A stretch of DNA of 64,000 bases from an uncultured delta proteobacterium. Lineage in GTDB: Bacteria; Desulfobacterota; Desulfobacteria; Desulfobacterales; SG8-13. The DNA is taken from assembly GCA_963719015.1 (NCBI GenBank), contig CAVRBA010000024.1, positions 8,791 through 72,790 on the forward strand, read 5' to 3'. The translations under genes were made by a program, and so were the position numbers. Positions 3,361 through 37,228 of the stretch are shown one piece after another (the stretch's first letter is position 1; the number at the start of each line of letters is the position of its first letter). Below the pieces are notes generated by a model, which ran no database searches, was not told the DNA's origin, and saw only the letters and a list, made by a program, of their open reading frames with translations.

Positions 3361-3981
3361 TCATTTCCCAACGAGAAATATACCGTAAGTGGCCCGCAAA
3401 TTCTGCATCCATTGAACGGTCCTGCCTTTGCGGTCGTGGATACTGATGGCTGTTTCCTTAAAGATTTTGAAACCGACGGTGCGGGCGAACTTTCTGAAAT
3501 CTTTGAGGGATATTACGCGGATATTGGGCGTGTCATACCACTGGTAAGGGAGTTGTCGCGTGACCGGCGCATAACCGGTTGTCAGAAGCTGAAATCGCAC
3601 CTGCCAATGGCTGAAGTTCGGGAAACTCACGACGGCTTTTTTCCCAATGCGTAAAATCGAACGGAGCAAAGCGGCCGGTTCATAAACCTGCTGCAGGGTT
3701 TGGCTCAAGATGACATAATCGAAAGCACCGTCAGGATAGTCAAGGACTTCAGCATTGATATCTCCCTGGAGAACTGTCACACCTTTTTCAATACATTGAG
3801 CGACCTTCTCTTCATCATGTTCGATGCCGGTTCCGCGAACTTCCTTGCGCGACTTCAAATAAAACAGCAGATCCCCCTCGCCGCATCCGAGGTCCAGCAC
3901 CCGGGTGTTCGGTTCGATCCACGAAGCAATAATCTGAAGGTCGAACCGGATCCTATTATTGTCGAAATTCAGAGTGGACAC
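3361..3981 (-). CDS. metW: Methionine biosynthesis protein MetW
   Basis: 206 aa. VLDLGCGEGDLL SAM-MTase-like motif and full-length resemblance to MetW. Its start overlaps the metX 3' end by 26 nt. Confidence 0.9.
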   Translation of the reverse strand: MSTLNFDNNRIRFDLQIIASWIEPNTRVLDLGCGEGDLLFYLKSRKEVRGTGIEHDEEKVAQCIEKGVTVLQGDINAEVLDYPDGAFDYVILSQTLQQVYEPAALLRSILRIGKKAVVSFPNFSHWQVRFQLLTTGYAPVTRQLPYQWYDTPNIRVISLKDFRKFARTVGFKIFKETAISIHDRKGRTVQWMQNLRATYGIFLVGK

Positions 3982-5128
3982 GTCCTAAAAACCCTTCGAT
4001 CAATTTTGTCAGCCGTTCACTGGGGAGGAGAAACGCATCGTGTCCCCAGTCCGCCTCAATTTCGCAAAAACTGACCTCCAATCCGTTTTTCTTCATGGTC
4101 TGCACTATCGACCGGGATTGGTAAGTCGGATACAACCAGTCGGACGTAAATGAAATCACGAAATATTTGGCAACAGCGCCTGAAAAGGCTTCGACCAGCG
4201 AACCGCCACCGTATTGTCGCTCCAGATCGAAGTAATCAGCCGCTTTGGAAATGTAAAGAAAACTATTGGCATCGAAGCGCTCGACAAATTTGGTCCCTTG
4301 ATATCGCAAATAACTCTCAACCTGAAAGTCAGCATCAAAGTTAAAAGAAAGGTCATTTTTATCCTGTAGTCTGCGTCCAAATTTTTGACGCATGGCAGCA
4401 TCGGAGAGATAAGTGATGTGACCGATCATTCGCGCAACAGCCAATCCCGTATCTGGTCGCTGTTTACCATAATAGTTTCCGTTGTTCCAATTCGGATCGG
4501 CCATAATCGCTTGTCGGGCGACCTCGTTAAACGCAATGGCCAGCGCTGAATGCCTGGTGGTGGTCGCCAGCGGGATGGCGGCATAAACCATTTCCGGATA
4601 CCGGACAGTCCATTCCAGGACTTGCATACCACCGATGGACCCGCCGATTACCGCCAGGAGTCGATCAACACCCAGGTGATCGACCAGGGCCTTTTGCGCC
4701 CTAACCATATCACCGATGGTCACCATTGGAAAATTCTTACCATAAGGTCGCCCAGTGGCCGGATCAATCGATCGCGGGCCGGTTGACCCCATACAGCTGC
4801 CAAGAATATTAGAACAGATGACAAAGTATTTATCCGTATCGATTCCCTTACCGGGCCCCACCATGATGTCCCACCAACCTGGTTTCGGATCCTCCGCGTT
4901 GTAATACCCGGCCGCATGAGCATCACCGGAAAGGGCGTGGAGCAAAAGTATGGCATTCGATCGGTCAGACGCAAGTGTCCCGTAAGTTTCATAAGCAATC
5001 GAAATGGGTCCCAAATGCGTACCACTCTCAAGGACCATCTCGTTCGGGGATTCTGCAAAGGTGAAGGTCTTTTTCACCACGATACCAACCGACCGCCCTT
5101 GGGTATCGTGTTCGATGTATTCACTCAT
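3956..5128 (-). CDS. metX: Homoserine O-acetyltransferase
   Basis: 390 aa alpha/beta hydrolase with GGSIGGMQ nucleophile elbow and the typical MetX N-terminus (SVGIV...FTF...LESG..L....IAYETYG). Confidence 0.92.
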   Translation of the reverse strand: MSEYIEHDTQGRSVGIVVKKTFTFAESPNEMVLESGTHLGPISIAYETYGTLASDRSNAILLLHALSGDAHAAGYYNAEDPKPGWWDIMVGPGKGIDTDKYFVICSNILGSCMGSTGPRSIDPATGRPYGKNFPMVTIGDMVRAQKALVDHLGVDRLLAVIGGSIGGMQVLEWTVRYPEMVYAAIPLATTTRHSALAIAFNEVARQAIMADPNWNNGNYYGKQRPDTGLAVARMIGHITYLSDAAMRQKFGRRLQDKNDLSFNFDADFQVESYLRYQGTKFVERFDANSFLYISKAADYFDLERQYGGGSLVEAFSGAVAKYFVISFTSDWLYPTYQSRSIVQTMKKNGLEVSFCEIEADWGHDAFLLPSERLTKLIEGFLGRVHSEFRQ

Positions 5129-15756: not shown

Positions 15757-16125
15757 ATTGCCTCCAACGGATAGGAATTCGATGCCAAAAACTAAATCTT
15801 TTTAACTATTCGGGCCACAGTAAATAGCAATTTTACACGCTTGAATAACGTTTGATAAATGTCTGACAGCATGTCTATTTCAAAACCTGCAGCGAAACAT
15901 TATATAACAAGTCAGGTTATTAACCAGAAATCGCTTAGCACACCAAGCAAACTCAATCAATGGATATCATCGGTTGTTCGCTTTGTGGGACTGGTATCGA
16001 TCTGCGCAATGGATATCGCCGCTGCAATATCACCCATCGTGTAACAGCTGCTGAATGGCTGGCGTCCAGGCAATATCGAAAGAAAAGAATGCTACAACAA
16101 TGAAATTCAGGGTAGTTGCCGTTAC

Positions 16126-17268
16126 CTATAGATATGATCGCATCATCTGCTTCACCCCAGCAGCCTCAGCCACCGTTAACAATGTGCACATGCCGCTTTT
16201 TTCCTGATCCGACTGGGCATCTACCCACTCGGTCAATTTCTGCAGCGCCCGGCCGCTACCGATAATTTCTTTGCTCATTGCTACACCTGTAGCAATATCT
16301 TCGGCCTTGCCCACCAGGTAAAGGACCGCCCCGGCGTTGAGACAAGTAATATCTATGCACCCATTGTGGCCTATTCCGCCGATAACTTTAAGGAAACGAA
16401 CGGCCTCTTTGCGCACGTCGCCAGTGGCGGCTATATCCCCGTATGCGGAGCGCTTCAATCCGACGTCTTCGGGGGCGATCGTGTGCGATACGTCACTCCC
16501 GTCCGCACGGATTTCCAGCACGACGCTTTCCCCAATGTTGGACAACTCGTCCATACCTTTGTCATTTTCGGCGTCAAATCCGTGTACGACCATCGCACGC
16601 TCGATTCCGATGGCTTTCATGATTTTCGCCACTTTCGGTACCATTTCAACTGAATAAACACCGCGCAGCGCATGGGTTGTTTGGCAGGGGCTTGCCAAAG
16701 AGGCGGCAATATTCAAGGTAGACCCAAACCGGATTTGACTGAGAATCCGGGCCAGGGACTGGGGGTGAACCAGAGCGCTCATACCGTTAAACAGCCCGAT
16801 ACCGGCCGTCTTGATGCTGCGCCCCACGGTATCCACGTCGCATTCCACGTTGATACCAATCGATTCGAGCAGATCAACGGTTCCGCAGCTTGATGTCAAC
16901 GCTCTCGCCCCATGGCGGGCCATACGGGTTCCAGCAGCCGCGGCAACAATCGCAGCCGCCGAACTGACATTGAATGTTTTCAGCTGATCCATGCCGGTAC
17001 CCGAATTTTCAACCAGCGGTTTCCCAAGGTCCTCTGTGACCGTCTCGGTGTCCAGTTCAAGGATGGCCTGCCATGCACCGGCAATTTCCGCAGGACTTTC
17101 CCCTTTGGCCGTCAGGGCGGCCAGAAAAGCACCCTGCTGCAAATCCGGTTGCTGGTTTTGCAGAACTTGGCGGAACATTTCCTGGCTTTCCTCACGCGTC
17201 AAATCTTTTTTATCAATCAATTTCTGGATATTCGATCCAAACGACTTTAATAGTTCATCCGTCCACAT
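16126..17268 (-). CDS. TrpD-family (glycosyl transferase family 3) phosphoribosyltransferase paralogue, non-canonical motifs
   Basis: 380 aa. TrpD-like N-terminal helical domain (DLTREESQEMFRQVL...GAFLAALTAKGESPAEIAG) and alpha/beta core. It has GTGMD instead of GTGGD and HGAR instead of HGNR. No other trp genes are nearby. It is the second gene behind the cobalamin riboswitch. Confidence 0.75.
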   Translation of the reverse strand: MWTDELLKSFGSNIQKLIDKKDLTREESQEMFRQVLQNQQPDLQQGAFLAALTAKGESPAEIAGAWQAILELDTETVTEDLGKPLVENSGTGMDQLKTFNVSSAAAIVAAAAGTRMARHGARALTSSCGTVDLLESIGINVECDVDTVGRSIKTAGIGLFNGMSALVHPQSLARILSQIRFGSTLNIAASLASPCQTTHALRGVYSVEMVPKVAKIMKAIGIERAMVVHGFDAENDKGMDELSNIGESVVLEIRADGSDVSHTIAPEDVGLKRSAYGDIAATGDVRKEAVRFLKVIGGIGHNGCIDITCLNAGAVLYLVGKAEDIATGVAMSKEIIGSGRALQKLTEWVDAQSDQEKSGMCTLLTVAEAAGVKQMMRSYL

Positions 17269-17284
17269 GGTGTAATTTCCGCTT

Positions 17285-18259
17285 CTATGGGTAGAGTAAT
17301 ATTTTCATTCCTTGCCGGGACGCGACAAGATCCAGTGCCCGGGTGAGATCGGTAAGCGGCAAACGATGTGAAATCATGTCACTCACGCCAACCTTGCCGC
17401 TCGAAATTAGACCGAGCGCTTCCTCGCCGTGACGGAAGCTGCAGCCGTATGCGCCGACAACGGTTTGCTCCATATAGTGAATATGATTCAGATCAAGGGA
17501 CAAAAAACAGTCATCGGGGGGAAGACCGGAAAAAATCACCAACCGCCCCCGGGGATTCAAGTGGGTTTTGGCTTCATTGTAGGCTGTCAGGTTTCCGACT
17601 GCGACCACACAGATATCGAATCGCAGATCCTCCGGGCAAACGGCGTATCCATCGATCAGGCGCCGACGGCGTTCATCGGTTTCGATGCATGTCGGCTTTG
17701 CCCCCATGGCCTCGGAAGCTCTGGCGAGAAGAGTTCCAGCCGGTCCCCCCCCCCATATTCCAACCTGTTTACCACTAGCGACTTCAGCCAGTTCCAGTGC
17801 ATTTAAACAGCATGACAACGGTTCGGCAAACACGGCATGTTCCGGCGACAGGCCCTGCGATACCTTGATGACACTTTGTGCGGGTACTGTCACAAAATCA
17901 GCAAACCCGCCATCACGATGAAATCCCATAATCTTCATATCACGGCAAAGATTCTCCGCCCCCGCGGCACATGCCGGACATGTTCCACACCAGATTCCAG
18001 GATAGACGTATACGCGATCACCTTCTGAGACGTTGACAACCTGCGCCCCTTTTCGCTGGATGACCCCAACAACCTCCTCACCCGGAATACGCGGCAGCAC
18101 CAGGTCCCGGTGTCCCGATCGAATAATCTTGAGGTCAGTGCGGCACATGCCGGTCACCTCAACCTGCACGAGGACCTCATCCTCCCGCGGTTCTTTAACA
18201 GGAAGTTCTTGTACCTGGAAACCACCGACTTCGGTTACCATAATGCATTTCATATTCAA
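17285..18259 (-). CDS. MDR-superfamily zinc alcohol-dehydrogenase-like protein (threonine/sorbitol DH-like), atypical catalytic site
   Basis: 324 aa. GGAGGTG SD, GMCRTD, structural Zn site CGTCPACAAGAENLC, Rossmann GGGPAG. The usual GHE is PGEE here. It is the first gene behind the cobalamin riboswitch. Confidence 0.8.
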   Translation of the reverse strand: MNMKCIMVTEVGGFQVQELPVKEPREDEVLVQVEVTGMCRTDLKIIRSGHRDLVLPRIPGEEVVGVIQRKGAQVVNVSEGDRVYVYPGIWCGTCPACAAGAENLCRDMKIMGFHRDGGFADFVTVPAQSVIKVSQGLSPEHAVFAEPLSCCLNALELAEVASGKQVGIWGGGPAGTLLARASEAMGAKPTCIETDERRRRLIDGYAVCPEDLRFDICVVAVGNLTAYNEAKTHLNPRGRLVIFSGLPPDDCFLSLDLNHIHYMEQTVVGAYGCSFRHGEEALGLISSGKVGVSDMISHRLPLTDLTRALDLVASRQGMKILLYP

Positions 18260-18344
18260 ATTTACACCTCCAGACAGATGCGCCGTCGCGATCTATGCCA
18301 ATAAAGCTTGGACCGGACGGATGTCAGGGTGAAACACGTTCACC

Positions 18345-18610
18345 CTGAAACAAACAATAAAGGGTTCCGGCAACCGCGATTGCGGTCAGCGGAACCCTTT
18401 GCCATCGGATATCCGATTGATCCGTATCCGTCGTCTTCTGGCTTCCCCGTATCCATCGCGACCTTCCCATGTCGATGCATCGACACAGTGGTTCCGTGCG
18501 ATCGAAAATTACCTGAATTGCGGGGTCACAGCGGCGGGACCGCCACGGATTTACACCGTGTTCCGTTACGGATGGGACCGACCCATTTTTCCGAACCAGT
18601 ATCAGATTAG
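18345..18610 (-). promoter_or_regulatory. Cobalamin (B12) riboswitch with intrinsic-terminator expression platform
   Basis: The minus strand reads ...ATGGGTCGGTCCCAT CCGTAACGGAACAC GGTGTAAATCC GTGGCGGTCCCGCCGCTGTGACCCC ... CCACTG-TGTCGATGCATCGACA-TGGGAAGG ... GGGGAAGCCAGAAGAC. This covers the core junction, the GCCACUG...GGGAAGG element and the B12 box. It is followed by the hairpin AAAGGGTTCCG/CGGAACCCTTT plus ATTGTTTGTTT at 18400-18345. The boundaries are approximate. Confidence 0.87.
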
Positions 18611-18957: not shown

Positions 18958-19863
18958 ATGCATTTATGTCAACGGACCTTAAAGAAGACAGTCCGGTGCG
19001 AAGGCATTGGACTGCACTCTGGAAAATCTGTCCATTTGACGCTCAAACCAGCGCCCATCAATCACGGAATACGATTCATTCGCGTGGATTTACCGGGCGC
19101 ACCCGGTGTCACCGCCCAGTTTAACCGTGTGGTGGATACCAGTCTGGCTACGGTCATCGGCAGTGATGGATGTATCGTTTCTACGGTCGAACACTTGATG
19201 GCTACATTCGCAGGTCTTTCAATCGACAACGCATTGATTGAACTCGATGCCTACGAAGTGCCCGTAATGGATGGCAGTGCTGGTCCTTTCACTGAATTGA
19301 TAACGAAATCCGGTATCAAGGACCAGGGGGTACCACGACACTTTTTTACACTCAAAGAACCCATTGAACTGATCGATGGCGACAAATCCGTCACAGCTTA
19401 TCCCTCTGACCGTTTTCAAATCACGTGCACCATAGATTTCACACACCCGTTGATTGGTAAACAGACCCTCTCCATCGCGGTCACTGACGAAGCATTTTCC
19501 ACCGAGATCTGTCGGGCACGAACTTTCGGTTTCTTACACGAAGTCGAATATATGAAACGCTATGGATTGGCCCTGGGTGGATCATTAGACAACGCAGTGG
19601 TGATCGACAAGGACCATATCATCAATACGGACGGCCTCAGGTTCCCCAATGAGTTTGTCCGCCACAAAGTTCTGGATTGTCTCGGAGATTTTTCCCTGCT
19701 GGGAATGCCGATCCTCGGTCACTTGAATGTCGTCAAATCCGGCCATGCATTCAATCACGCCTTCCTCGAAAAATTCTTCTCTCAGAAAGAGTCCTGGGAA
19801 ACCCGCTGGATCCCCGGCTCATCGCCACGTCCGGCCTCACAACCAAAATCTGTTGCCATTTAA
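18958..19863 (+). CDS. lpxC: UDP-3-O-acyl-N-acetylglucosamine deacetylase
   Basis: 301 aa. QRTLKKTVRCEGIGLHSGKSVHLTLKPAPINHGIRF is a typical LpxC N-terminus. GGAAGGA lies 10 nt upstream of the ATG. Confidence 0.93.
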   Translation: MHLCQRTLKKTVRCEGIGLHSGKSVHLTLKPAPINHGIRFIRVDLPGAPGVTAQFNRVVDTSLATVIGSDGCIVSTVEHLMATFAGLSIDNALIELDAYEVPVMDGSAGPFTELITKSGIKDQGVPRHFFTLKEPIELIDGDKSVTAYPSDRFQITCTIDFTHPLIGKQTLSIAVTDEAFSTEICRARTFGFLHEVEYMKRYGLALGGSLDNAVVIDKDHIINTDGLRFPNEFVRHKVLDCLGDFSLLGMPILGHLNVVKSGHAFNHAFLEKFFSQKESWETRWIPGSSPRPASQPKSVAI

Positions 19864-25802: not shown

Positions 25803-26726
25803 ATGGACCTCTGGCAGCTCAATATTTTCTGCAAAGTCGTCGAGCAGCGGAGTTTTTCCAAAGCGGGAAAGCTGGCCCATCTATCTCAACCGACAGTCAG
25901 TAGTCATATTAAGGACCTTGAGAATCATTTCGGTTGCCGGTTGATCGACCGATTGGCCAAAGAGGCCGTTCCCACCAAGGAAGGTGAACTTCTATACCAT
26001 TATGCCCAACGGTTGATTGGTTTGCGGGACGAAACCGAAGAGGCGCTAAGAAAATTCAAGGATTCTGTGGAAGGCAATTTGATTGTCGGAGGCAGCACCA
26101 TTCCCGGTGGTTATCTGCTACCACAGTTGATCGCCGGATTCCTCAAGAAATTCCCGAAAGTTTATGTCTCCCTGCGGGTTGGGGGTACCGGAAAGGTCAC
26201 GACCGACATTCTGTCAGGAAAGATTGAATTGGGGGTTGTGGGCGCCCGGATTTCAGACAATCACCTAGAGCAAATAGTCTTGCTGGAAGATAAAATGCGT
26301 CTGATTGTCCCCCGTGATCACAAATGGAGCGACAGGCGCAGCATCGATCTGAATACGTTGCTCCGTGAGCGATTCATTGTGCGTGAAACGGGTTCAGGTA
26401 CACTTAAATCAATCCAGCACAATCTACGGAAAAGCGGATACACCCTGGAGCAATTCAATATCGTCTCAGAACTCGGTAGCACTGAATCAGTCGTCCAGGG
26501 GATAAAGAACAACATCGGCCTTTCGATTGTCTCTCCGATCGCCGTTGCAGACGAGCTAAATTCCGGAATGCTTAAGGCCCTGAGGATCAACGGTCTGAAA
26601 CTCAAGCGCCATTTCTACCTCACACGGCACAGACACCGCAGCCTTTCACCGGCCGGGCAGGCTTTTATGGCGTATCTGCCAAAGGTGCTGGCTGATGAAA
26701 ATCCGTTGCAAAACTTCCTGCAATAA
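25803..26726 (+). CDS. LysR family transcriptional regulator
   Basis: 307 aa. N-terminal wHTH (LNIFCKVVEQRSFSKAGKLAHLSQPTVSSHIKDLE) and a LysR substrate-binding domain. Confidence 0.88.
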   Translation: MDLWQLNIFCKVVEQRSFSKAGKLAHLSQPTVSSHIKDLENHFGCRLIDRLAKEAVPTKEGELLYHYAQRLIGLRDETEEALRKFKDSVEGNLIVGGSTIPGGYLLPQLIAGFLKKFPKVYVSLRVGGTGKVTTDILSGKIELGVVGARISDNHLEQIVLLEDKMRLIVPRDHKWSDRRSIDLNTLLRERFIVRETGSGTLKSIQHNLRKSGYTLEQFNIVSELGSTESVVQGIKNNIGLSIVSPIAVADELNSGMLKALRINGLKLKRHFYLTRHRHRSLSPAGQAFMAYLPKVLADENPLQNFLQ

Positions 26727-33360: not shown

Positions 33361-36174
33361 TTAAAGCACTTGGCGCTGCTCCAGTTGGACGATTCTCGGC
33401 GTAATGAAAATCAGCAGTTCATTGTTAGTTTTCGATTCCGACTCGGTTTTGAACAACCAACCCACCAGCGGGATGTTTTTGACCCCTGGCCAACCGGTAG
33501 AGGAATCCTGCTCGTTTTTCTTGATGATGCCGCCGATAACGATCGTGTCGCCATCGTTGACCAACAGTTCGGTCTGCGCTTCGTTAGTGTTCAGAGACGG
33601 AACGCCCAGGGTGATAACACCGATATCATTTTTTGTAATGAATATTTTCATCAGAATGCGATCGTCCGGTGTCACCGTCGGGGTCACCTCCAAAAGCAGG
33701 TCGATATTTTTAAATTTTACGGTGGCATTACCGGACGAATCCCTCTCCAGGTAGGGCCACTCGACACCCTGCTTGATTTTGGCTTTTTTGTTGTCGAGGG
33801 TGACGATTTTCGGTGCGGTAATAATCCGACCCTGTTTGTTGGCCTCAACCGCGTTGAGAGTGGCTTCGAGAGTCAATGGCGTTCCGCCGAGTTTCGTAAA
33901 ATTGAATCCGACGGTCGAGGAAGACGCCGACGGGAAGTTCATGGCAACATCACCGCCGATGCCAAAACTGCCGATAGTGCCCGGCCCCCAGGCCATTTGC
34001 CAGTCGATACCCAGTTCCATCGAAAACTCGTCGCTAACTTCAACCACCTTGGCCTCTATGATAACCTGTGGTGTCACGGTGTCGATCCGGCTGACAATTT
34101 CCTTTATCTGCCCAATTTTGCTTGCGGTATCGGTAACGATCAGTTGGTTGTTGCGCTTATCGACACTGACGCTTCCGCGATCTTTCGTCAGCACCTTTTG
34201 AACGAGGGGTAAGACTTCGCCGCTGGCATCCGAGTAGTTAACGGCAATGTATTCAGTCACTAAAGGCTCCAAGGCCTTGACCACTTCCCGGGATTTCTGT
34301 TCAGCGGCAATCTGATCCTGCTTGGCCTTCTCTTCCGCTGTCAGTGTCGATATGGTGGCAATGCGAATAATATCGCCCTCATAAACCATTCCAAGGCGAT
34401 TCATCTTTAGTACCAGATCCAGTACTTGATCCCATGGAACCGGTTTTTCGAGAGTCAGTGTCACCGTACCGGTAACATCTTTGTCGATTGCGAAGTTCTT
34501 GCCACTGATTTCACGAATGATGCGAAACACATTTTTAATGTCTGTTTCATAGAAATCAAGCGCAATTTTTTCACCGGTGTACCGCTTGGGAGAAGCGTAG
34601 CCTGACAACGAATACGACATGGGGGCACTCATCGTCATCGTCATCATACCTGAAGGTGACGCTTGCGCCGCAGGCGCTTCGGCTCCCATAATTTCAATGA
34701 CGCCCGGTGTTTCTTGGGCACTTTGAACGGTCAATGTTGCCGGCGGGTCAGCAGGTGTTGGCCTTTGTGGCTGTGAAGTCTCTTCGCTCTCAGTTAGGGC
34801 CTCTGTCTGGGCCAAAACCTGTTTCCAACTTGGCAGATCAGCCTGTTCGAGCGGTTTGGGAGGAATGGAGGATGCACCGAACCGAATCATCAGAACATCG
34901 TCCTCTTGCTCAATATCGTATGACACGGCCTCCCGAAGTTCTATAGTCACCGAGGTTGTCTGTGGTTCCAAATTTTTATAAACGGGCGTTATCCGGTTAA
35001 CAGCGCTCTCAAACCGGGTTGTGATCAACGGGCGGTCACGGTACTTTGGTAGCTTTGTGTCGTACAGTTTCAGCTGCAGTAATGTATCCGTGGTACTCTT
35101 TAAATCATAAGTGACCGGACGTGTTGTACCGACGATAAGGGTCGACTGACCGGCATCTTCGGTGATGAAGTCAAGACGGTTTATCCAGGCCGTTTTATCT
35201 TGAACGACACCCGCTGTCTCTGCTGAGGGCGCTGGGGTTACTGCCGGCGCTGGTGCCGGTACAAGGGGCTGCGGTGTTTTCTCAGCGGCAGCGATAGGTT
35301 CTGGCGCCGTAATCGTTTCCTCAGTGCCAACCTGAACCAGCAGTCCCGTCGGAGTTGATACAGCCGAATACGATTTCAAATACTCCGAATGGGTGTCGAC
35401 AACCATCCGGATCTTTTTGGGGTAAACGAAGTAGCGAACTTGCCGCACCGATTCGGTGTCCGCCTTTACCACCTGTTCACCTTGGGTGGGGCTTTTCAAA
35501 TTTGGTATATCGAATACGATCCGGGCGGGTTTATCCAAAGCGAAGACTTTGAAGTCTTCGATGGTACCGTCGGTGTTGACACTAATTTGGGTCTGATTTT
35601 CCGTTTTATTTACGTAAACGCCTTCAAGACGGGAGGCCGGAGCAACGGTGGATGTCTCTGCGGGAACGTTGCGGGTTTCGGATTCACTCACCGGTGCCTC
35701 ACTGATCGTGGTGTCAAGAGGCTTGGCAAAAGAAATTCTGATGCCTTTCTTTTCAGCCGTTACTTCATAAGGAACGTCCTGTTTCAAGCTGATCAACAGG
35801 CGTGATATATCCTGTTTATCATTAATCGGCGAAACTTCGACGGAGTCAATGATTTCATGATTCGATAAAACAAGAGGCTCGACAGCACCGTCGATTTCTG
35901 TGTCCTGAAAGTAAAACAATATACCCAAAGGCAGGTTTTGTTTTACTGACGTATAAGTAAGCTGACGATTACCGTTGACCACGACAACATAGGACGAATC
36001 GTCCTCGGAAGCGGTAATCCCGGTGATGCGTTTCGAATCGGGAAGTTGCTGAGCGCTGGACGCGTCATTGACCACCGGCTTGTTGGCGGTACAACCACCT
36101 GACAGCCCGAACAGGACGATAAGAAAAATGGCCAGTGCTGCGCGTTTGTTGACTTTTGCAAATACGGTGCTCAT
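33361..36174 (-). CDS. pilQ: Type IV pilus secretin PilQ (AMIN domains + secretin)
   Basis: I chose the start at MSTVFAKVNKRAALAIFLIVLFGLSGGC (ATG 36174), 4 nt after the pilP stop. N-terminal AMIN-like repeats, A/P-rich linkers, and a C-terminal secretin core (...NELLIFITPRIV). Confidence 0.9.
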   Translation of the reverse strand: MSTVFAKVNKRAALAIFLIVLFGLSGGCTANKPVVNDASSAQQLPDSKRITGITASEDDSSYVVVVNGNRQLTYTSVKQNLPLGILFYFQDTEIDGAVEPLVLSNHEIIDSVEVSPINDKQDISRLLISLKQDVPYEVTAEKKGIRISFAKPLDTTISEAPVSESETRNVPAETSTVAPASRLEGVYVNKTENQTQISVNTDGTIEDFKVFALDKPARIVFDIPNLKSPTQGEQVVKADTESVRQVRYFVYPKKIRMVVDTHSEYLKSYSAVSTPTGLLVQVGTEETITAPEPIAAAEKTPQPLVPAPAPAVTPAPSAETAGVVQDKTAWINRLDFITEDAGQSTLIVGTTRPVTYDLKSTTDTLLQLKLYDTKLPKYRDRPLITTRFESAVNRITPVYKNLEPQTTSVTIELREAVSYDIEQEDDVLMIRFGASSIPPKPLEQADLPSWKQVLAQTEALTESEETSQPQRPTPADPPATLTVQSAQETPGVIEIMGAEAPAAQASPSGMMTMTMSAPMSYSLSGYASPKRYTGEKIALDFYETDIKNVFRIIREISGKNFAIDKDVTGTVTLTLEKPVPWDQVLDLVLKMNRLGMVYEGDIIRIATISTLTAEEKAKQDQIAAEQKSREVVKALEPLVTEYIAVNYSDASGEVLPLVQKVLTKDRGSVSVDKRNNQLIVTDTASKIGQIKEIVSRIDTVTPQVIIEAKVVEVSDEFSMELGIDWQMAWGPGTIGSFGIGGDVAMNFPSASSSTVGFNFTKLGGTPLTLEATLNAVEANKQGRIITAPKIVTLDNKKAKIKQGVEWPYLERDSSGNATVKFKNIDLLLEVTPTVTPDDRILMKIFITKNDIGVITLGVPSLNTNEAQTELLVNDGDTIVIGGIIKKNEQDSSTGWPGVKNIPLVGWLFKTESESKTNNELLIFITPRIVQLEQRQVL

Positions 36175-36178
36175 GGGA

Positions 36179-37228
36179 TCATTCTCCGGGAGGTTTCGGG
36201 AGTACGAGTTCTTTGTTACGGATTTTCTGTGTTCCGGCAACTTCATCGGTTTCTTCCTCGATAACAACGCGGTCTTTTTTTATGTCAGTAACTTTTCCGG
36301 AATGAAGGCCGATAAAGGTCCCCTCTTTTATAATATATCCTTTACCGGAAGCCTCCTGTACAAGGGCCCTGTTGCCGCTGCTGGCCATTATGATTCCGAC
36401 CAATTTCAGCTGTCCGATGTCGATTCTCTCCAGGGGCGTCCGGGGGACCCGTCTTTTTTTCTTGGCAGTGACCGGGGGCGCTTCGGGCTCATCCTTGAAG
36501 AGCGGCTCAAAAGGATTGATCCTGCCTTGTGGATTATACCTTACAGGGGCGCCTTTCTGCATGGCAACGGTCGTAGCGCCCTTTTTCACCGCGGGATTAA
36601 CGGCAGCAACCGTTGCGGCAGGGTCGGTCGGTATGATCGTATCAGGCTCGGGTGTTAATGGTGCTGTTGCCGGCTGAATCACAGCGGCTGAAGAAGGCAC
36701 GGCTTCTGTGGCTGGTTTTTCCTGAGCAACGGCGTTTGTAGCAGAGGGGGCTGCCTGGGGCCGTGCCATCTCTGGCGGTAATCTTTTTACCTCCGGAATT
36801 GCTGCCGGTTGCTCGGCTGATGCCGTTGTCGCCTTGTTGGCAGTTACCTCTGGGGGCATTTTGACCTTCGGCTGCGAAATGGCGGTCGATGCTGTCACCG
36901 GTGCCGTTGAGTTCTTGGCAACCATTGGGGGGGCTTTCCTGCTCGCCGGCGTTGCAGCTATATCGGATTTAGGCCTGAGTTCTGCCGTTGAAATTCTTTT
37001 CACCACCGGGGCCGCCTGGATTCTTTTACCTACTTTGGCGACGGTGACAGCCGGCGATGCGGACTGGGCACTATTGCGGGCAAGTGCAGTGGGCGTTTTC
37101 GGAGCGACAATTTTCTTCCTAACCACCTTGGGCTTCGGAAGGGTCTGCTTTTGAAAATCGCAGCCCCAGGTTGCCACAACAAAACAAGACAATAAGGCCA
37201 GTGTAATAATACCGCGCAGTTTGCTCAT
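36179..37228 (-). CDS. pilP: Pilus assembly lipoprotein PilP with a long Ala/Pro/Thr-rich linker
   Basis: 349 aa. Lipobox (ATWGC), about 200 aa of low-complexity linker, and a C-terminal PilP beta-domain (NPFEPL...QLKLVGIIMASSGNRALVQEASGKGYIIKEGTFIG). Confidence 0.75.
   Translation of the reverse strand: MSKLRGIITLALLSCFVVATWGCDFQKQTLPKPKVVRKKIVAPKTPTALARNSAQSASPAVTVAKVGKRIQAAPVVKRISTAELRPKSDIAATPASRKAPPMVAKNSTAPVTASTAISQPKVKMPPEVTANKATTASAEQPAAIPEVKRLPPEMARPQAAPSATNAVAQEKPATEAVPSSAAVIQPATAPLTPEPDTIIPTDPAATVAAVNPAVKKGATTVAMQKGAPVRYNPQGRINPFEPLFKDEPEAPPVTAKKKRRVPRTPLERIDIGQLKLVGIIMASSGNRALVQEASGKGYIIKEGTFIGLHSGKVTDIKKDRVVIEEETDEVAGTQKIRNKELVLPKPPGE

Follow-up and report, generated by a model that had tools for sequence, protein, structure and literature searches.

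A two-gene operon headed by a cobalamin riboswitch is described here from a 64,000-nucleotide stretch of DNA (the window) belonging to an uncultured delta proteobacterium of the Desulfobacterota (contig CAVRBA010000024.1, positions 8,791 to 72,790). The first gene encodes a medium-chain dehydrogenase/reductase (MDR) of the alcohol dehydrogenase (ADH) type and the second a paralogue with the fold of the anthranilate phosphoribosyltransferase TrpD. What is new is a member of the cobalamin-riboswitch regulon that encodes an uncharacterised enzyme pair and that is both widespread and cross-domain. The pair, predicted to be repressed by adenosylcobalamin (AdoCbl) through its terminator, is probably an uncharacterised accessory module of late cobamide assembly, concerned with the lower ligand, the nucleotide loop or remodelling. 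A narrower proposal is put forward more tentatively, and may well prove mistaken: that the pair catalyses an unrecognised anaerobic cobamide reaction, either a route to a lower-ligand base or ribotide that depends on phosphoribosyl pyrophosphate (PRPP), which would be the third beside BluB and Bza, or a new nucleotide-loop or remodelling step.

The linkage between the riboswitch and the two genes is conserved and not accidental. Relatives were found by a degenerate-pattern scan (330, counting one genome per GTDB species), a scan of Joint Genome Institute (JGI) metagenomes added at least 254 confirmed relatives, and 160 loci were analysed, with counts taken from BLAST to verified representatives and from tblastn, and with aptamers detected by nhmmer, using a profile made from hits that Rfam had confirmed. 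Of the 130 loci with enough flank to be judged, 127 have the ADH-like gene immediately before the paralogue; of 115 that could be judged for a cobalamin riboswitch, 85 have one no more than 800 nt 5' of the ADH-like gene. RF00174 preceded the ADH-like gene in 12 of 16 loci sampled with cmscan at the gathering score; the sources were Desulfobacterota, Thermoleophilia, Kiritimatiellia, Nitrospirota, Firmicutes, Acidobacteriota and Spirochaetales (at least seven phyla). Loci without a riboswitch are mostly those in which the pair lies inside a longer cob operon, archaeal loci, or the nearest relatives of the window, L001 and L002. Orthologues of both genes are thus preceded by RF00174-type aptamers in many phyla, which answers in the positive the comparative question raised by an earlier note on the window, made from its letters alone. 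The pair is one conserved module of the cobamide regulon.

The riboswitch and its expression platform

The features of the operon, all on the minus strand, are as follows.

18413..18610, minus strand: cobalamin riboswitch aptamer, long and class-I-like, with a GCCACUG...GGGAAGG extension and the B12 box AGCCAGAAGAC (cmscan, RF00174)
18391..18414, minus strand: pre-terminator hairpin, a candidate antiterminator, GGAUAUCC / loop GAUGGCAAA / GGGUUCC (covariation, 60 leaders)
18348..18400, minus strand: intrinsic terminator with an 11-bp outer and a 7-bp inner stem, AAAGGGUUCCG-CUGACCGC...GCGGUUG-CGGAACCCUUU, then AUUGUUUGUUU (minimum-free-energy fold, covariation)
18325..18347, minus strand: second hairpin, CAGGGUGAACGUGUUUCACCCUG, with no U tail (minimum-free-energy fold)
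18271..18265, minus strand: Shine-Dalgarno sequence GGAGGUG (sequence)
18253..18251, minus strand: probable ATG start of gene 1 (sequence and homologue alignments; alternative TTG at 18259)
17285..18253, minus strand: gene 1, polyol/threonine-dehydrogenase-type MDR, 322 amino acids (Pfam ADH_N, 93 bits, and ADH_zinc_N)
16126..17268, minus strand: gene 2, TrpD-fold (type III phosphoribosyltransferase) paralogue, 380 amino acids (Pfam Glycos_trans_3N and Glycos_transf_3)
15931..15950, minus strand: terminator-like hairpin about 175 nt past the stop codon of gene 2, the likely end of the operon (consensus scan only)

The aptamer occupies the 5' leader of the operon on the coding strand, with the expression platform downstream. 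Its match to RF00174 at 18413-18610 scores 67.1 bits against a gathering score of 31.5 (E=2.2e-14), spans model positions 1-189 of 189, and was the sole match at the gathering threshold when the 64-kb window was compared with all 4227 Rfam families by cmscan. The earlier note had called a cobalamin riboswitch from its motifs; the full-length match bears this out. All the motifs that it quoted are present on the minus strand, at most about 1 nt from where they had been placed, namely GGAACACGGTGTAAATCC from 18564, CCACTG at 18491-18486, the hairpin GTCGATGCATCGAC, TGGGAAGG at 18469-18462 and AAGCCAGAAGAC at 18444-18433, and the gap of about 700 bp in front of lpxC, which starts at 18958 (plus strand), was also confirmed. 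Alignment to the consensus shows the conserved core of the family (GGAA..GGUG.AAAUCC, GCCACUG...GGGAAGG and the B12 box AGCCAG.AGAC). Across 16 orthologous leaders the core is invariant, its helices are conserved or covarying, and P1 and the peripheral pairs covary. The element is an ordinary member of RF00174 and a genuine class-I-like cobalamin riboswitch, with AdoCbl as the predicted ligand. A consensus scan of the minus strand upstream of the aptamer gave no convincing sigma-70 promoter.

Two open reading frames (ORFs) placed across the leader, one of 100 amino acids with a TTG start antisense to the riboswitch (window 18308-18610, plus strand) and one of 119 amino acids put by the gene caller in the corresponding region of L001, are almost certainly spurious. 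In two loci (L029:2508-2782 and L122:8-269) an insertion of about 110 nt breaks the aptamer before the pair into two pieces in the nhmmer search, and the platform motif and terminator are intact.

Downstream of the aptamer, the hairpin AAAGGGTTCCG...CGGAACCCTTT (18400-18359) is followed by the tail ATTGTTTGTTT (18358-18348, minus strand), and both lie within the minimum-free-energy (MFE) fold of a leader whose folding is much more stable than that of shuffled sequences (z = -4.2 and -5.1). The terminator with this U tract lies about 90 nt 5' of the start codon. A simple terminator scan skipped this hairpin because its loop is longer than 8 nt. Of 62 orthologous leaders, 56 carry a hairpin with a U tail in the interval from aptamer to start codon, an interval with a median length of 93 nt. 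In 60 aligned platforms from many phyla, 95.9% of the cells of the 18-bp terminator stem are paired, as against 33-60% in controls with the partner slid, and 184 cells are changed on both sides as against 52.5 in shuffles, with none of 500 shuffles reaching 184. The terminator-type platform foreseen by the earlier note is therefore strongly covarying as well as part of the MFE fold, and the second hairpin that it had placed after the terminator was found at 18347-18325.

The 60 leaders share a common design, GGAAUCY-GAUGGYAAA-GGGUUCC...GGAACCCUUUU, in which GGGUUCC serves both as the 3' strand of a small hairpin and as the 5' strand of the terminator. Conservation of this platform sequence across phyla together with the genes suggests that the whole module has been inherited or transferred as a unit. 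The outer pairs of the small hairpin covary, changing from GC to AU in 8 and 6 sequences along with the matching terminator columns, and 79% of its cells are paired compared with 30-64% when the partner is slid. When 16 leaders were cut off ahead of the terminator's 3' strand, GGGUUCC paired in this hairpin in the MFE fold of 12; the copy in the window has one bulged U, and the truncated window fold pairs GGGUUCC elsewhere. The platform is a terminator/antiterminator arrangement, with the small hairpin as the putative antiterminator. For another candidate antiterminator, pairing of GGAAC in the aptamer core with GUUCC, both partners are invariant, so no covariation signal is possible. No covarying long-range contact linking aptamer to terminator was found in the orthologous leaders, and kissing-loop or P1-sharing models of their coupling gained no support, the 3' strand of P1 lying about 35 nt 5' of the competing hairpin.

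It may be proposed that the small hairpin (GGAAUCC/GGGUUCC type) would form first after the aptamer, that the long G+C-based terminator hairpin with its U tract would then compete for the GGGUUCC strand, and that corrinoid binding would favour the terminator, by analogy with other cobalamin riboswitches. The operon would then be transcribed only when cobamide is scarce. A natural sensor knock-out is provided by the two closest relatives, L001 (at L001:8560-8995) and L002 (88% identity in the ADH-like protein and 91% in the TrpD-like protein), in which a clean deletion of 116 nt, corresponding to window 18566-18451 and lying between short repeats TAACGG/TACGG, has removed the aptamer core. Both retain the 3' end of the B12 box, the small hairpin, the terminator and full-length genes, and L002 has no RF00174 match. 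This loss of the core with the genes intact fits an OFF switch and proves nothing.

Polarity can also be argued the other way. Under an ON switch, or a response to incomplete corrinoids, an imported corrinoid would induce the module for remodelling with CbiZ or CbiR and not for de novo synthesis. The terminator is very stable (-27 to -33 kcal/mol) and the competing hairpin has only about 7 bp, so that termination could be the default; in addition cbiZ overlaps the stop codon of the paralogue in five loci, and the pair co-varies with a CbiZ contig in Chlorobium. To our knowledge, however, characterised cobalamin riboswitches are almost all OFF switches, the retention of full-length genes in L001 and L002 is easier to understand if loss of the sensor de-represses the operon, and no element was found that would link ligand binding to stabilisation of the small hairpin. 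An ON switch, or a response to incomplete corrinoids, is held to be quite improbable, and we infer OFF polarity from the norm of the riboswitch family.

Genomic neighbourhoods of the pair

The families of neighbouring genes were checked in representative members with Pfam and NCBIfam, and these representatives then served as BLAST references for the counts. At least one cob or btu neighbour lies within 4-8 kb in 41 of the 140 loci for which ORFs were called. The counts for each neighbour were as follows.

cobT: 13 loci
archaeal-type cobT (TIGR00303): 6 loci, on Methanothrix-type contigs
cobU: 10 loci
cobS: 5 loci
cbiZ: 5 loci
cbiB: 5 loci
cobD/cobQ: 9 loci
cobA-hemD: 5 loci
btuB, btuC and btuD: 3-10 loci each

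The gene orders, in which RS denotes a cobalamin riboswitch, include the following.

RS-ADH-TrpDlike-cobT: L033 and L160
ADH-TrpDlike-cobT-cobS: L145
RS-ADH-TrpDlike-RS-cobU-cobT: Thermoleophilia
cobU-cobT-cobS-RS-ADH-TrpDlike: Kiritimatiellia
btuB-btuC-btuD-ADH-TrpDlike-cbiB-cobD/Q: L080
hemC/cobA/hemD-hemB-ADH-TrpDlike-hemL-cbiET: L063
ADH-TrpDlike-cbiZ-btuB: L138, L147 and L154
archaeal cobT-ADH-TrpDlike: Methanothrix

On Methanothrix-type contigs (L156-L162; for example L157:6700-9080 and L159:2530-5830) a cobT matching TIGR00303 at 324 bits is followed by the ADH-like and TrpD-like genes with no riboswitch, and the CobT of these archaeal-type contigs groups with a protein of Methanothrix. 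The module is thus present in both domains and in both is associated with cobT. In five loci (L138, L147, L150, L154 and L125) cbiZ (PF01955, adenosylcobinamide amidohydrolase) starts 7 nt before the stop codon of the TrpD-like gene (for example L150:6367-7200). The CbiZ at these loci has an apparent signal-peptide-like N-terminus and the next gene encodes a TonB-dependent receptor, which points to a cluster for salvage or remodelling.

For Chlorobium phaeovibrioides, RefSeq already annotates the riboswitch with the pair, and the arrangement is listed, uninterpreted, in the supplement of a study of Ca. Chlorobium antarcticum (PMC8620254). The order in C. phaeovibrioides DSM 265 is cbiA-RS-ADH-TrpDlike-RS-btuB...cobQ-cobD-cbiB...cobU-cobT-cobS, with nrdDG just upstream of cbiA and the pair (PMC8620254 supplement, RefSeq annotation). 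In Ca. C. antarcticum the contig that carries the pair was present in 25% of cells in summer and 10% in winter, frequencies that closely match those of the CobN/BtuB and CbiZ/Btu contigs, and the authors filed both genes under 'general function' and 'other metabolism' (PMC8620254). A second, canonical trpD lies elsewhere in that genome, in a region matching DSM 265 (PMC8620254 supplement).

These neighbourhoods bear on the choice, left open in the earlier note, between a step in cobamide lower-ligand, nucleotide-loop or salvage metabolism and a B12-independent bypass of a B12-dependent reaction, which would be off when B12 is available in the manner of metE or nrdDG. Repression by cobalamin fits a bypass equally well, most pairs in Desulfobacterota form a stand-alone riboswitch-controlled operon, as metE often does, and nrdDG lies just upstream of cbiA and the pair in C. 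phaeovibrioides. Apart from this more distant nrdDG in Chlorobium, however, no gene for a B12-independent isozyme was noted beside the pair, and the informative neighbours are genes of cobamide biosynthesis, salvage or transport. The pair lies inside cob operons without its own riboswitch in L063, L080, L086 and L138, it follows the archaeal cobT in Methanothrix, and in Ca. C. antarcticum it is not universal and co-varies with the CobN, CbiZ and Btu accessory contigs. Nor is there a known B12-dependent reaction that a PRPP transferase and a dehydrogenase would plausibly replace. A bypass is thus unlikely, and cobamide assembly or salvage is favoured because the module occurs inside cob operons, adjoins cobT in bacteria and an archaeon, and co-varies with genes of cobamide acquisition (genomic context; PMC8620254 supplement). 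Within cobamide metabolism the lower-ligand, nucleotide-loop or remodelling branch is favoured, since the most frequent and most intimate partners are the late genes cobT, cobU, cobS, cbiZ and cbiB.

Several other observations were made at these loci. In Thermoleophilia (L037, L043, L054, L103 and L153) a second cobalamin riboswitch stands right after the TrpD-like gene and before cobU-cobT (L153:8103-8244); its platform has no terminator and looks as though it sequesters the ribosome-binding site (GGGAGGG), so that the two adjacent B12 switches would use different mechanisms. A PP-loop ATPase of the PF01902 'diphthamide synthase' type recurs near the pair and cob genes in loci of the Planctomycetes-Verrucomicrobia-Chlamydiae (PVC) type (L044, L045, L115, L148 and L151; L148:2107-2790). 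In Syntrophobacter (L082:6326-8329) the three genes just 5' of the riboswitch encode a UbiE-like methyltransferase, an AP_endonuc_2 protein that weakly matches CbiR (58 bits, cut-off 105) and a small protein of the nitroreductase family that weakly matches BluB; no riboswitch was detected 5' of these three genes.

In the window itself, 370 nt past the operon and beyond the terminator-like hairpin, lies a yifB/comM-like gene (15756-14221, minus strand; Mg-chelatase-like AAA ATPase, 666 bits). It was rejected as a third member of the operon since conservation is confined to the nearest relative, L001, in which two ORFs make up the gene, and it is probably unrelated to cobalt chelation. Elsewhere in the window are a selenium-metabolism-associated LysR regulator (25803-26726, plus strand), metX, encoding homoserine O-acetyltransferase (3956-5128, minus strand), and a PilQ-type secretin (33361-36267, minus strand). 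Among 20 ORFs of the window scanned against family libraries there were no cob, cbi or bza genes.

The two proteins and the reaction they may catalyse

The earlier note had named the two downstream genes correctly as a Zn-ADH-like MDR and a TrpD-family phosphoribosyltransferase paralogue; their products carry ADH_N/ADH_zinc_N and Glycos_transf_3 (TrpD-fold) domains. Its placing of the ATG at 18259 did not hold: that position is a TTG, the start chosen by the ORF caller, and the ATG to which homologues align is at 18253. Most tblastn alignments of homologues reach residue 1-3 of the TTG-started ORF and the N-terminus MKC... is kept in L003; 18253 is favoured as the start because of these alignments and this conserved N-terminus.

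The best named relatives of gene 1 are L-threonine 3-dehydrogenases (TDHs) and polyol or sugar-phosphate dehydrogenases, all far under curated cut-offs. Across 62 members of the family, conservation extends to the structural-zinc Cys4 loop, the catalytic Cys and the Glu of EPLS, and in 58 of them Glu (PGEE) takes the place of the catalytic His. A GxGPAG Rossmann motif is present, and the acidic residue after the second Rossmann strand suggests the use of NAD and not NADP. Gene 1 thus probably encodes an NAD-dependent MDR with an unusual Cys/Glu/Glu metal site. The nearest structures to its AlphaFold2 (AF2) model (predicted local distance difference test, pLDDT, 90) were 4ejm, an uncharacterised MDR of Sinorhizobium, and TDHs such as 2dq4 (Foldseek).

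These resemblances raise the question of whether the pair might supply the aminopropanol or threonine-phosphate linker of cobamides, by way of L-threonine, 2-amino-3-ketobutyrate, aminoacetone and (R)-1-amino-2-propanol, so filling the absence of PduX, with the TrpD-like protein as an accessory. The best-scoring named families of gene 1 are indeed TDHs, 2dq4 is third by Foldseek, cbiB and cobD/Q are adjacent in several loci, and annotations for pduX and cobD are absent from most verified producers (PMC6461909). Gene 1 was rejected as a TDH, however, on its equivalog scores (141.8 and 140.6 bits to NF003808 and TIGR00692, against cut-offs of 380 and 458) and on the broken Cys-His-Glu zinc site. 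Such a pathway would also leave no role for a PRPP-transferase paralogue that is strictly co-inherited (127/130 loci), and Chlorobium keeps a threonine-phosphate decarboxylase, which needs threonine phosphate and not aminopropanol. A linker function is consequently rather improbable.

Gene 2 starts 16 nt past gene 1 and scores 65.8 and 173.9 bits to Glycos_trans_3N and Glycos_transf_3. It also scores above the cut-off of the trpD equivalog TIGR01245 (245 bits against 199.05), which accounts for its public name, and all of its named database relatives (P0001-P0120) are labelled anthranilate phosphoribosyltransferase (AnPRT). On that evidence gene 2 would be the real AnPRT of the organism and the riboswitch linkage would have nothing to do with cobamide metabolism. 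The active site argues otherwise. In the AnPRT of Mycobacterium tuberculosis, PRPP and Mg2+ are bound by GTGGD, N117/S119/T120, K135 and D251/E252, and the carboxylate of anthranilate is held by N138 (of KHGN) and R193 (of helix alpha8) (PMC9835598). The gene 2 family retains the NxS, DE and GTGxD elements, and carries GTGMD, RHGAR and FGSTLN in place of the GTGGD, KHGN(R/K) and (I/V)RT(I/V)FN of AnPRT. Alignment to solved AnPRT structures gives K135/N138 (KHGN) as RHGA, R193 as Gly and GPLTNP as ASLASP, substitutions that are invariant in the 20 close and 8 distant family members aligned. Both carboxylate ligands, N138 and R193, are therefore absent from the family, being Ala and Gly, and it is for this reason that the paralogue is not regarded as TrpD. 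In the 160 loci, neither the neighbour clusters that recur nor the matches to the cob/btu references included a trp gene, a separate trpD is present in Chlorobium, and the riboswitch linkage is conserved across phyla. That gene 2 is the genuine AnPRT is hardly credible, and the TrpD naming, judged by the active-site residues with which it conflicts, is a systematic misannotation.

In the loop GTGMD the Gly that contacts the 5'-phosphate is replaced by an invariant Met, and the Mg2+-binding DE is kept. Gene 2 very probably still uses PRPP and very probably cannot bind anthranilate in the canonical way. With the anthranilate-carboxylate residues lost and most of the PRPP/Mg2+ site kept, it most likely uses PRPP to ribosylate some other acceptor, one without a carboxylate. 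The AF2 model (pLDDT 84.5) has an extra C-terminal helix of about 30 residues, and the top Foldseek matches are all AnPRTs. For neither protein did the AF2 models with Foldseek, or sequence searches of solved structures, give a functional clue, only generic AnPRT and MDR neighbours being returned.

We infer both the use of PRPP and the pathway step served. The paralogue would be a ribosyltransferase that depends on PRPP and takes an acceptor lacking a carboxylate, the target of the MDR would be either that acceptor or the phosphoribosyl or ribityl moiety, and the pair would make, activate or exchange the lower ligand or its ribotide alongside CobT, CobU, CobS and CbiZ. The statement of the earlier note that no role has been described for this enzyme pair stands, as a full-text literature search found no paper that assigns it a function. 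Neither protein matched a described cobamide enzyme family (CobT, CobU, CobS, CobC, CbiZ, CbiR, Bza, BluB, PduX and others) in Pfam and NCBIfam, only MDR and TrpD-type families. Room for an undescribed activity is left by the finding that known determinants predict the structure of the lower ligand for only 58% of predicted cobamide producers and that most verified producers have no annotation for pduX, cobR and cobD (PMC6461909). The pair was also considered as a replacement for cbiJ, a gene that is often missing in delta-proteobacteria (PMC545781). This is unlikely since the B12-elements listed for Geobacter and Desulfovibrio precede other genes, namely a large cob locus, cbiK-cbiL with btuCDF, and nrdDG (PMC545781), and a TrpD-fold enzyme has no place in that step.

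Several points weigh against a role in late cobamide assembly. In most Desulfobacterota, the window included, the pair is isolated, cob genes being absent from the surrounding 4-10 kb, the operon of the window being flanked by a divergent lpxC and the yifB/comM-like gene, and hence the context evidence comes from other lineages (the PVC group, Thermoleophilia, Chlorobium and Methanothrix). Early (hemB/hemL), middle (cbiET) and late (cobUTS, cbiZ) steps are all represented among the neighbours, which therefore do not single out any one of them. PRPP yields beta-ribosides by inversion and cobamides need an alpha-glycosidic bond, which makes a simple role as a second CobT chemically awkward, and CobT usually co-occurs with the pair, so that the pair does not replace it. 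The change from G to M in GTGGD touches the 5'-phosphate site and makes the use of PRPP not certain. The function of both proteins and the polarity of the switch are read from sequence and context.

The structure of a cobamide, its lower ligand above all, decides which microbes use which B12 analogue, and in this way gives shape to communities of the gut, of sediments and of syntrophic partners. In most producers several anaerobic pathway steps still await a gene, among them those of pduX and cobR and the supply of lower ligand outside bluB and bza. A module found in 330 species-level genomes and in Methanothrix is a concrete and testable candidate for one such gap because its cobamide-related neighbours, where present, include cobT, cobU, cobS or cbiZ. 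If the proposal is true, the reaction would be common to many phyla of anaerobic bacteria and to Methanothrix, and the module might explain part of the approximately 40% of predicted producers whose lower ligand is unpredictable from known genes. The misannotation of the paralogue as AnPRT can, furthermore, distort reconstructions of the tryptophan pathway in these taxa.

Comparison with known systems

The leader resembles the RF00174 terminator-type switches that precede cob, cbi and btu operons in its full-length aptamer, its B12 box, its position in the 5' leader and its terminator with a competing hairpin. Unlike those operons, it controls genes that belong to no described cobamide gene family. 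It also differs from usual RF00174 platforms in that the platform, GAUGGYAAAGGGUUCC...GGAACCCUUUU, is itself conserved in sequence across phyla with the genes.

Gene 2 shares with TrpD (PDB 1ZVW, 1ZYK and 9UCW) a two-domain fold (Foldseek probability 1.0, template-modelling score 0.83-0.93 on target), with about 28-31% identity in structural alignments and with NxS, DE and GTGxD kept. It departs from TrpD in having RHGA, Gly for the carboxylate Arg, GTGMD, ASLASP and about 30 extra residues as a C-terminal helix, and in lacking trp context, being instead nearly always paired with the MDR gene (127/130) and usually with a B12 riboswitch. With CobT/ArsAB, the phosphoribosyltransferases through which the lower ligand is activated, and archaeal CobT (TIGR00303) it has in common that it is a putative ribosyl-phosphate transferase in the cobamide regulon, with cobT itself a frequent direct neighbour. 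There is no homology between them, gene 2 matching only Glycos_transf_3 families and not DBI_PRT (PF02277). The chemistry is also expected to differ, since CobT takes nicotinate mononucleotide, a beta donor, to alpha products, whereas the likely donor for gene 2 is PRPP (alpha), which would give beta products. Unlike a replacement for CobT, the pair co-occurs with it.

The bza operon is a riboswitch-repressed accessory module beside cobT in anaerobes, and the pair is likewise riboswitch-controlled, a putative accessory module of anaerobes that can lie beside cobT. The operon (bzaAB/F-cobT-bzaCDE) serves anaerobic benzimidazole biosynthesis and thereby the supply of lower ligand (PMC6461909). 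The bza products are ThiC-like and B12-radical-SAM enzymes, unlike the phosphoribosyltransferase and MDR of the pair, and no bza homologues were noted in the loci examined. Gene 1, finally, is like Tdh and the polyol and sugar-phosphate dehydrogenases (2DQ4, 4A2C and 1E3J) in its fold, Cys4 loop, catalytic Cys, EPLS Glu and GxGxxG NAD site, and unlike them in falling under every equivalog cut-off, in the replacement of His by Glu and in being shorter, at 322 amino acids.

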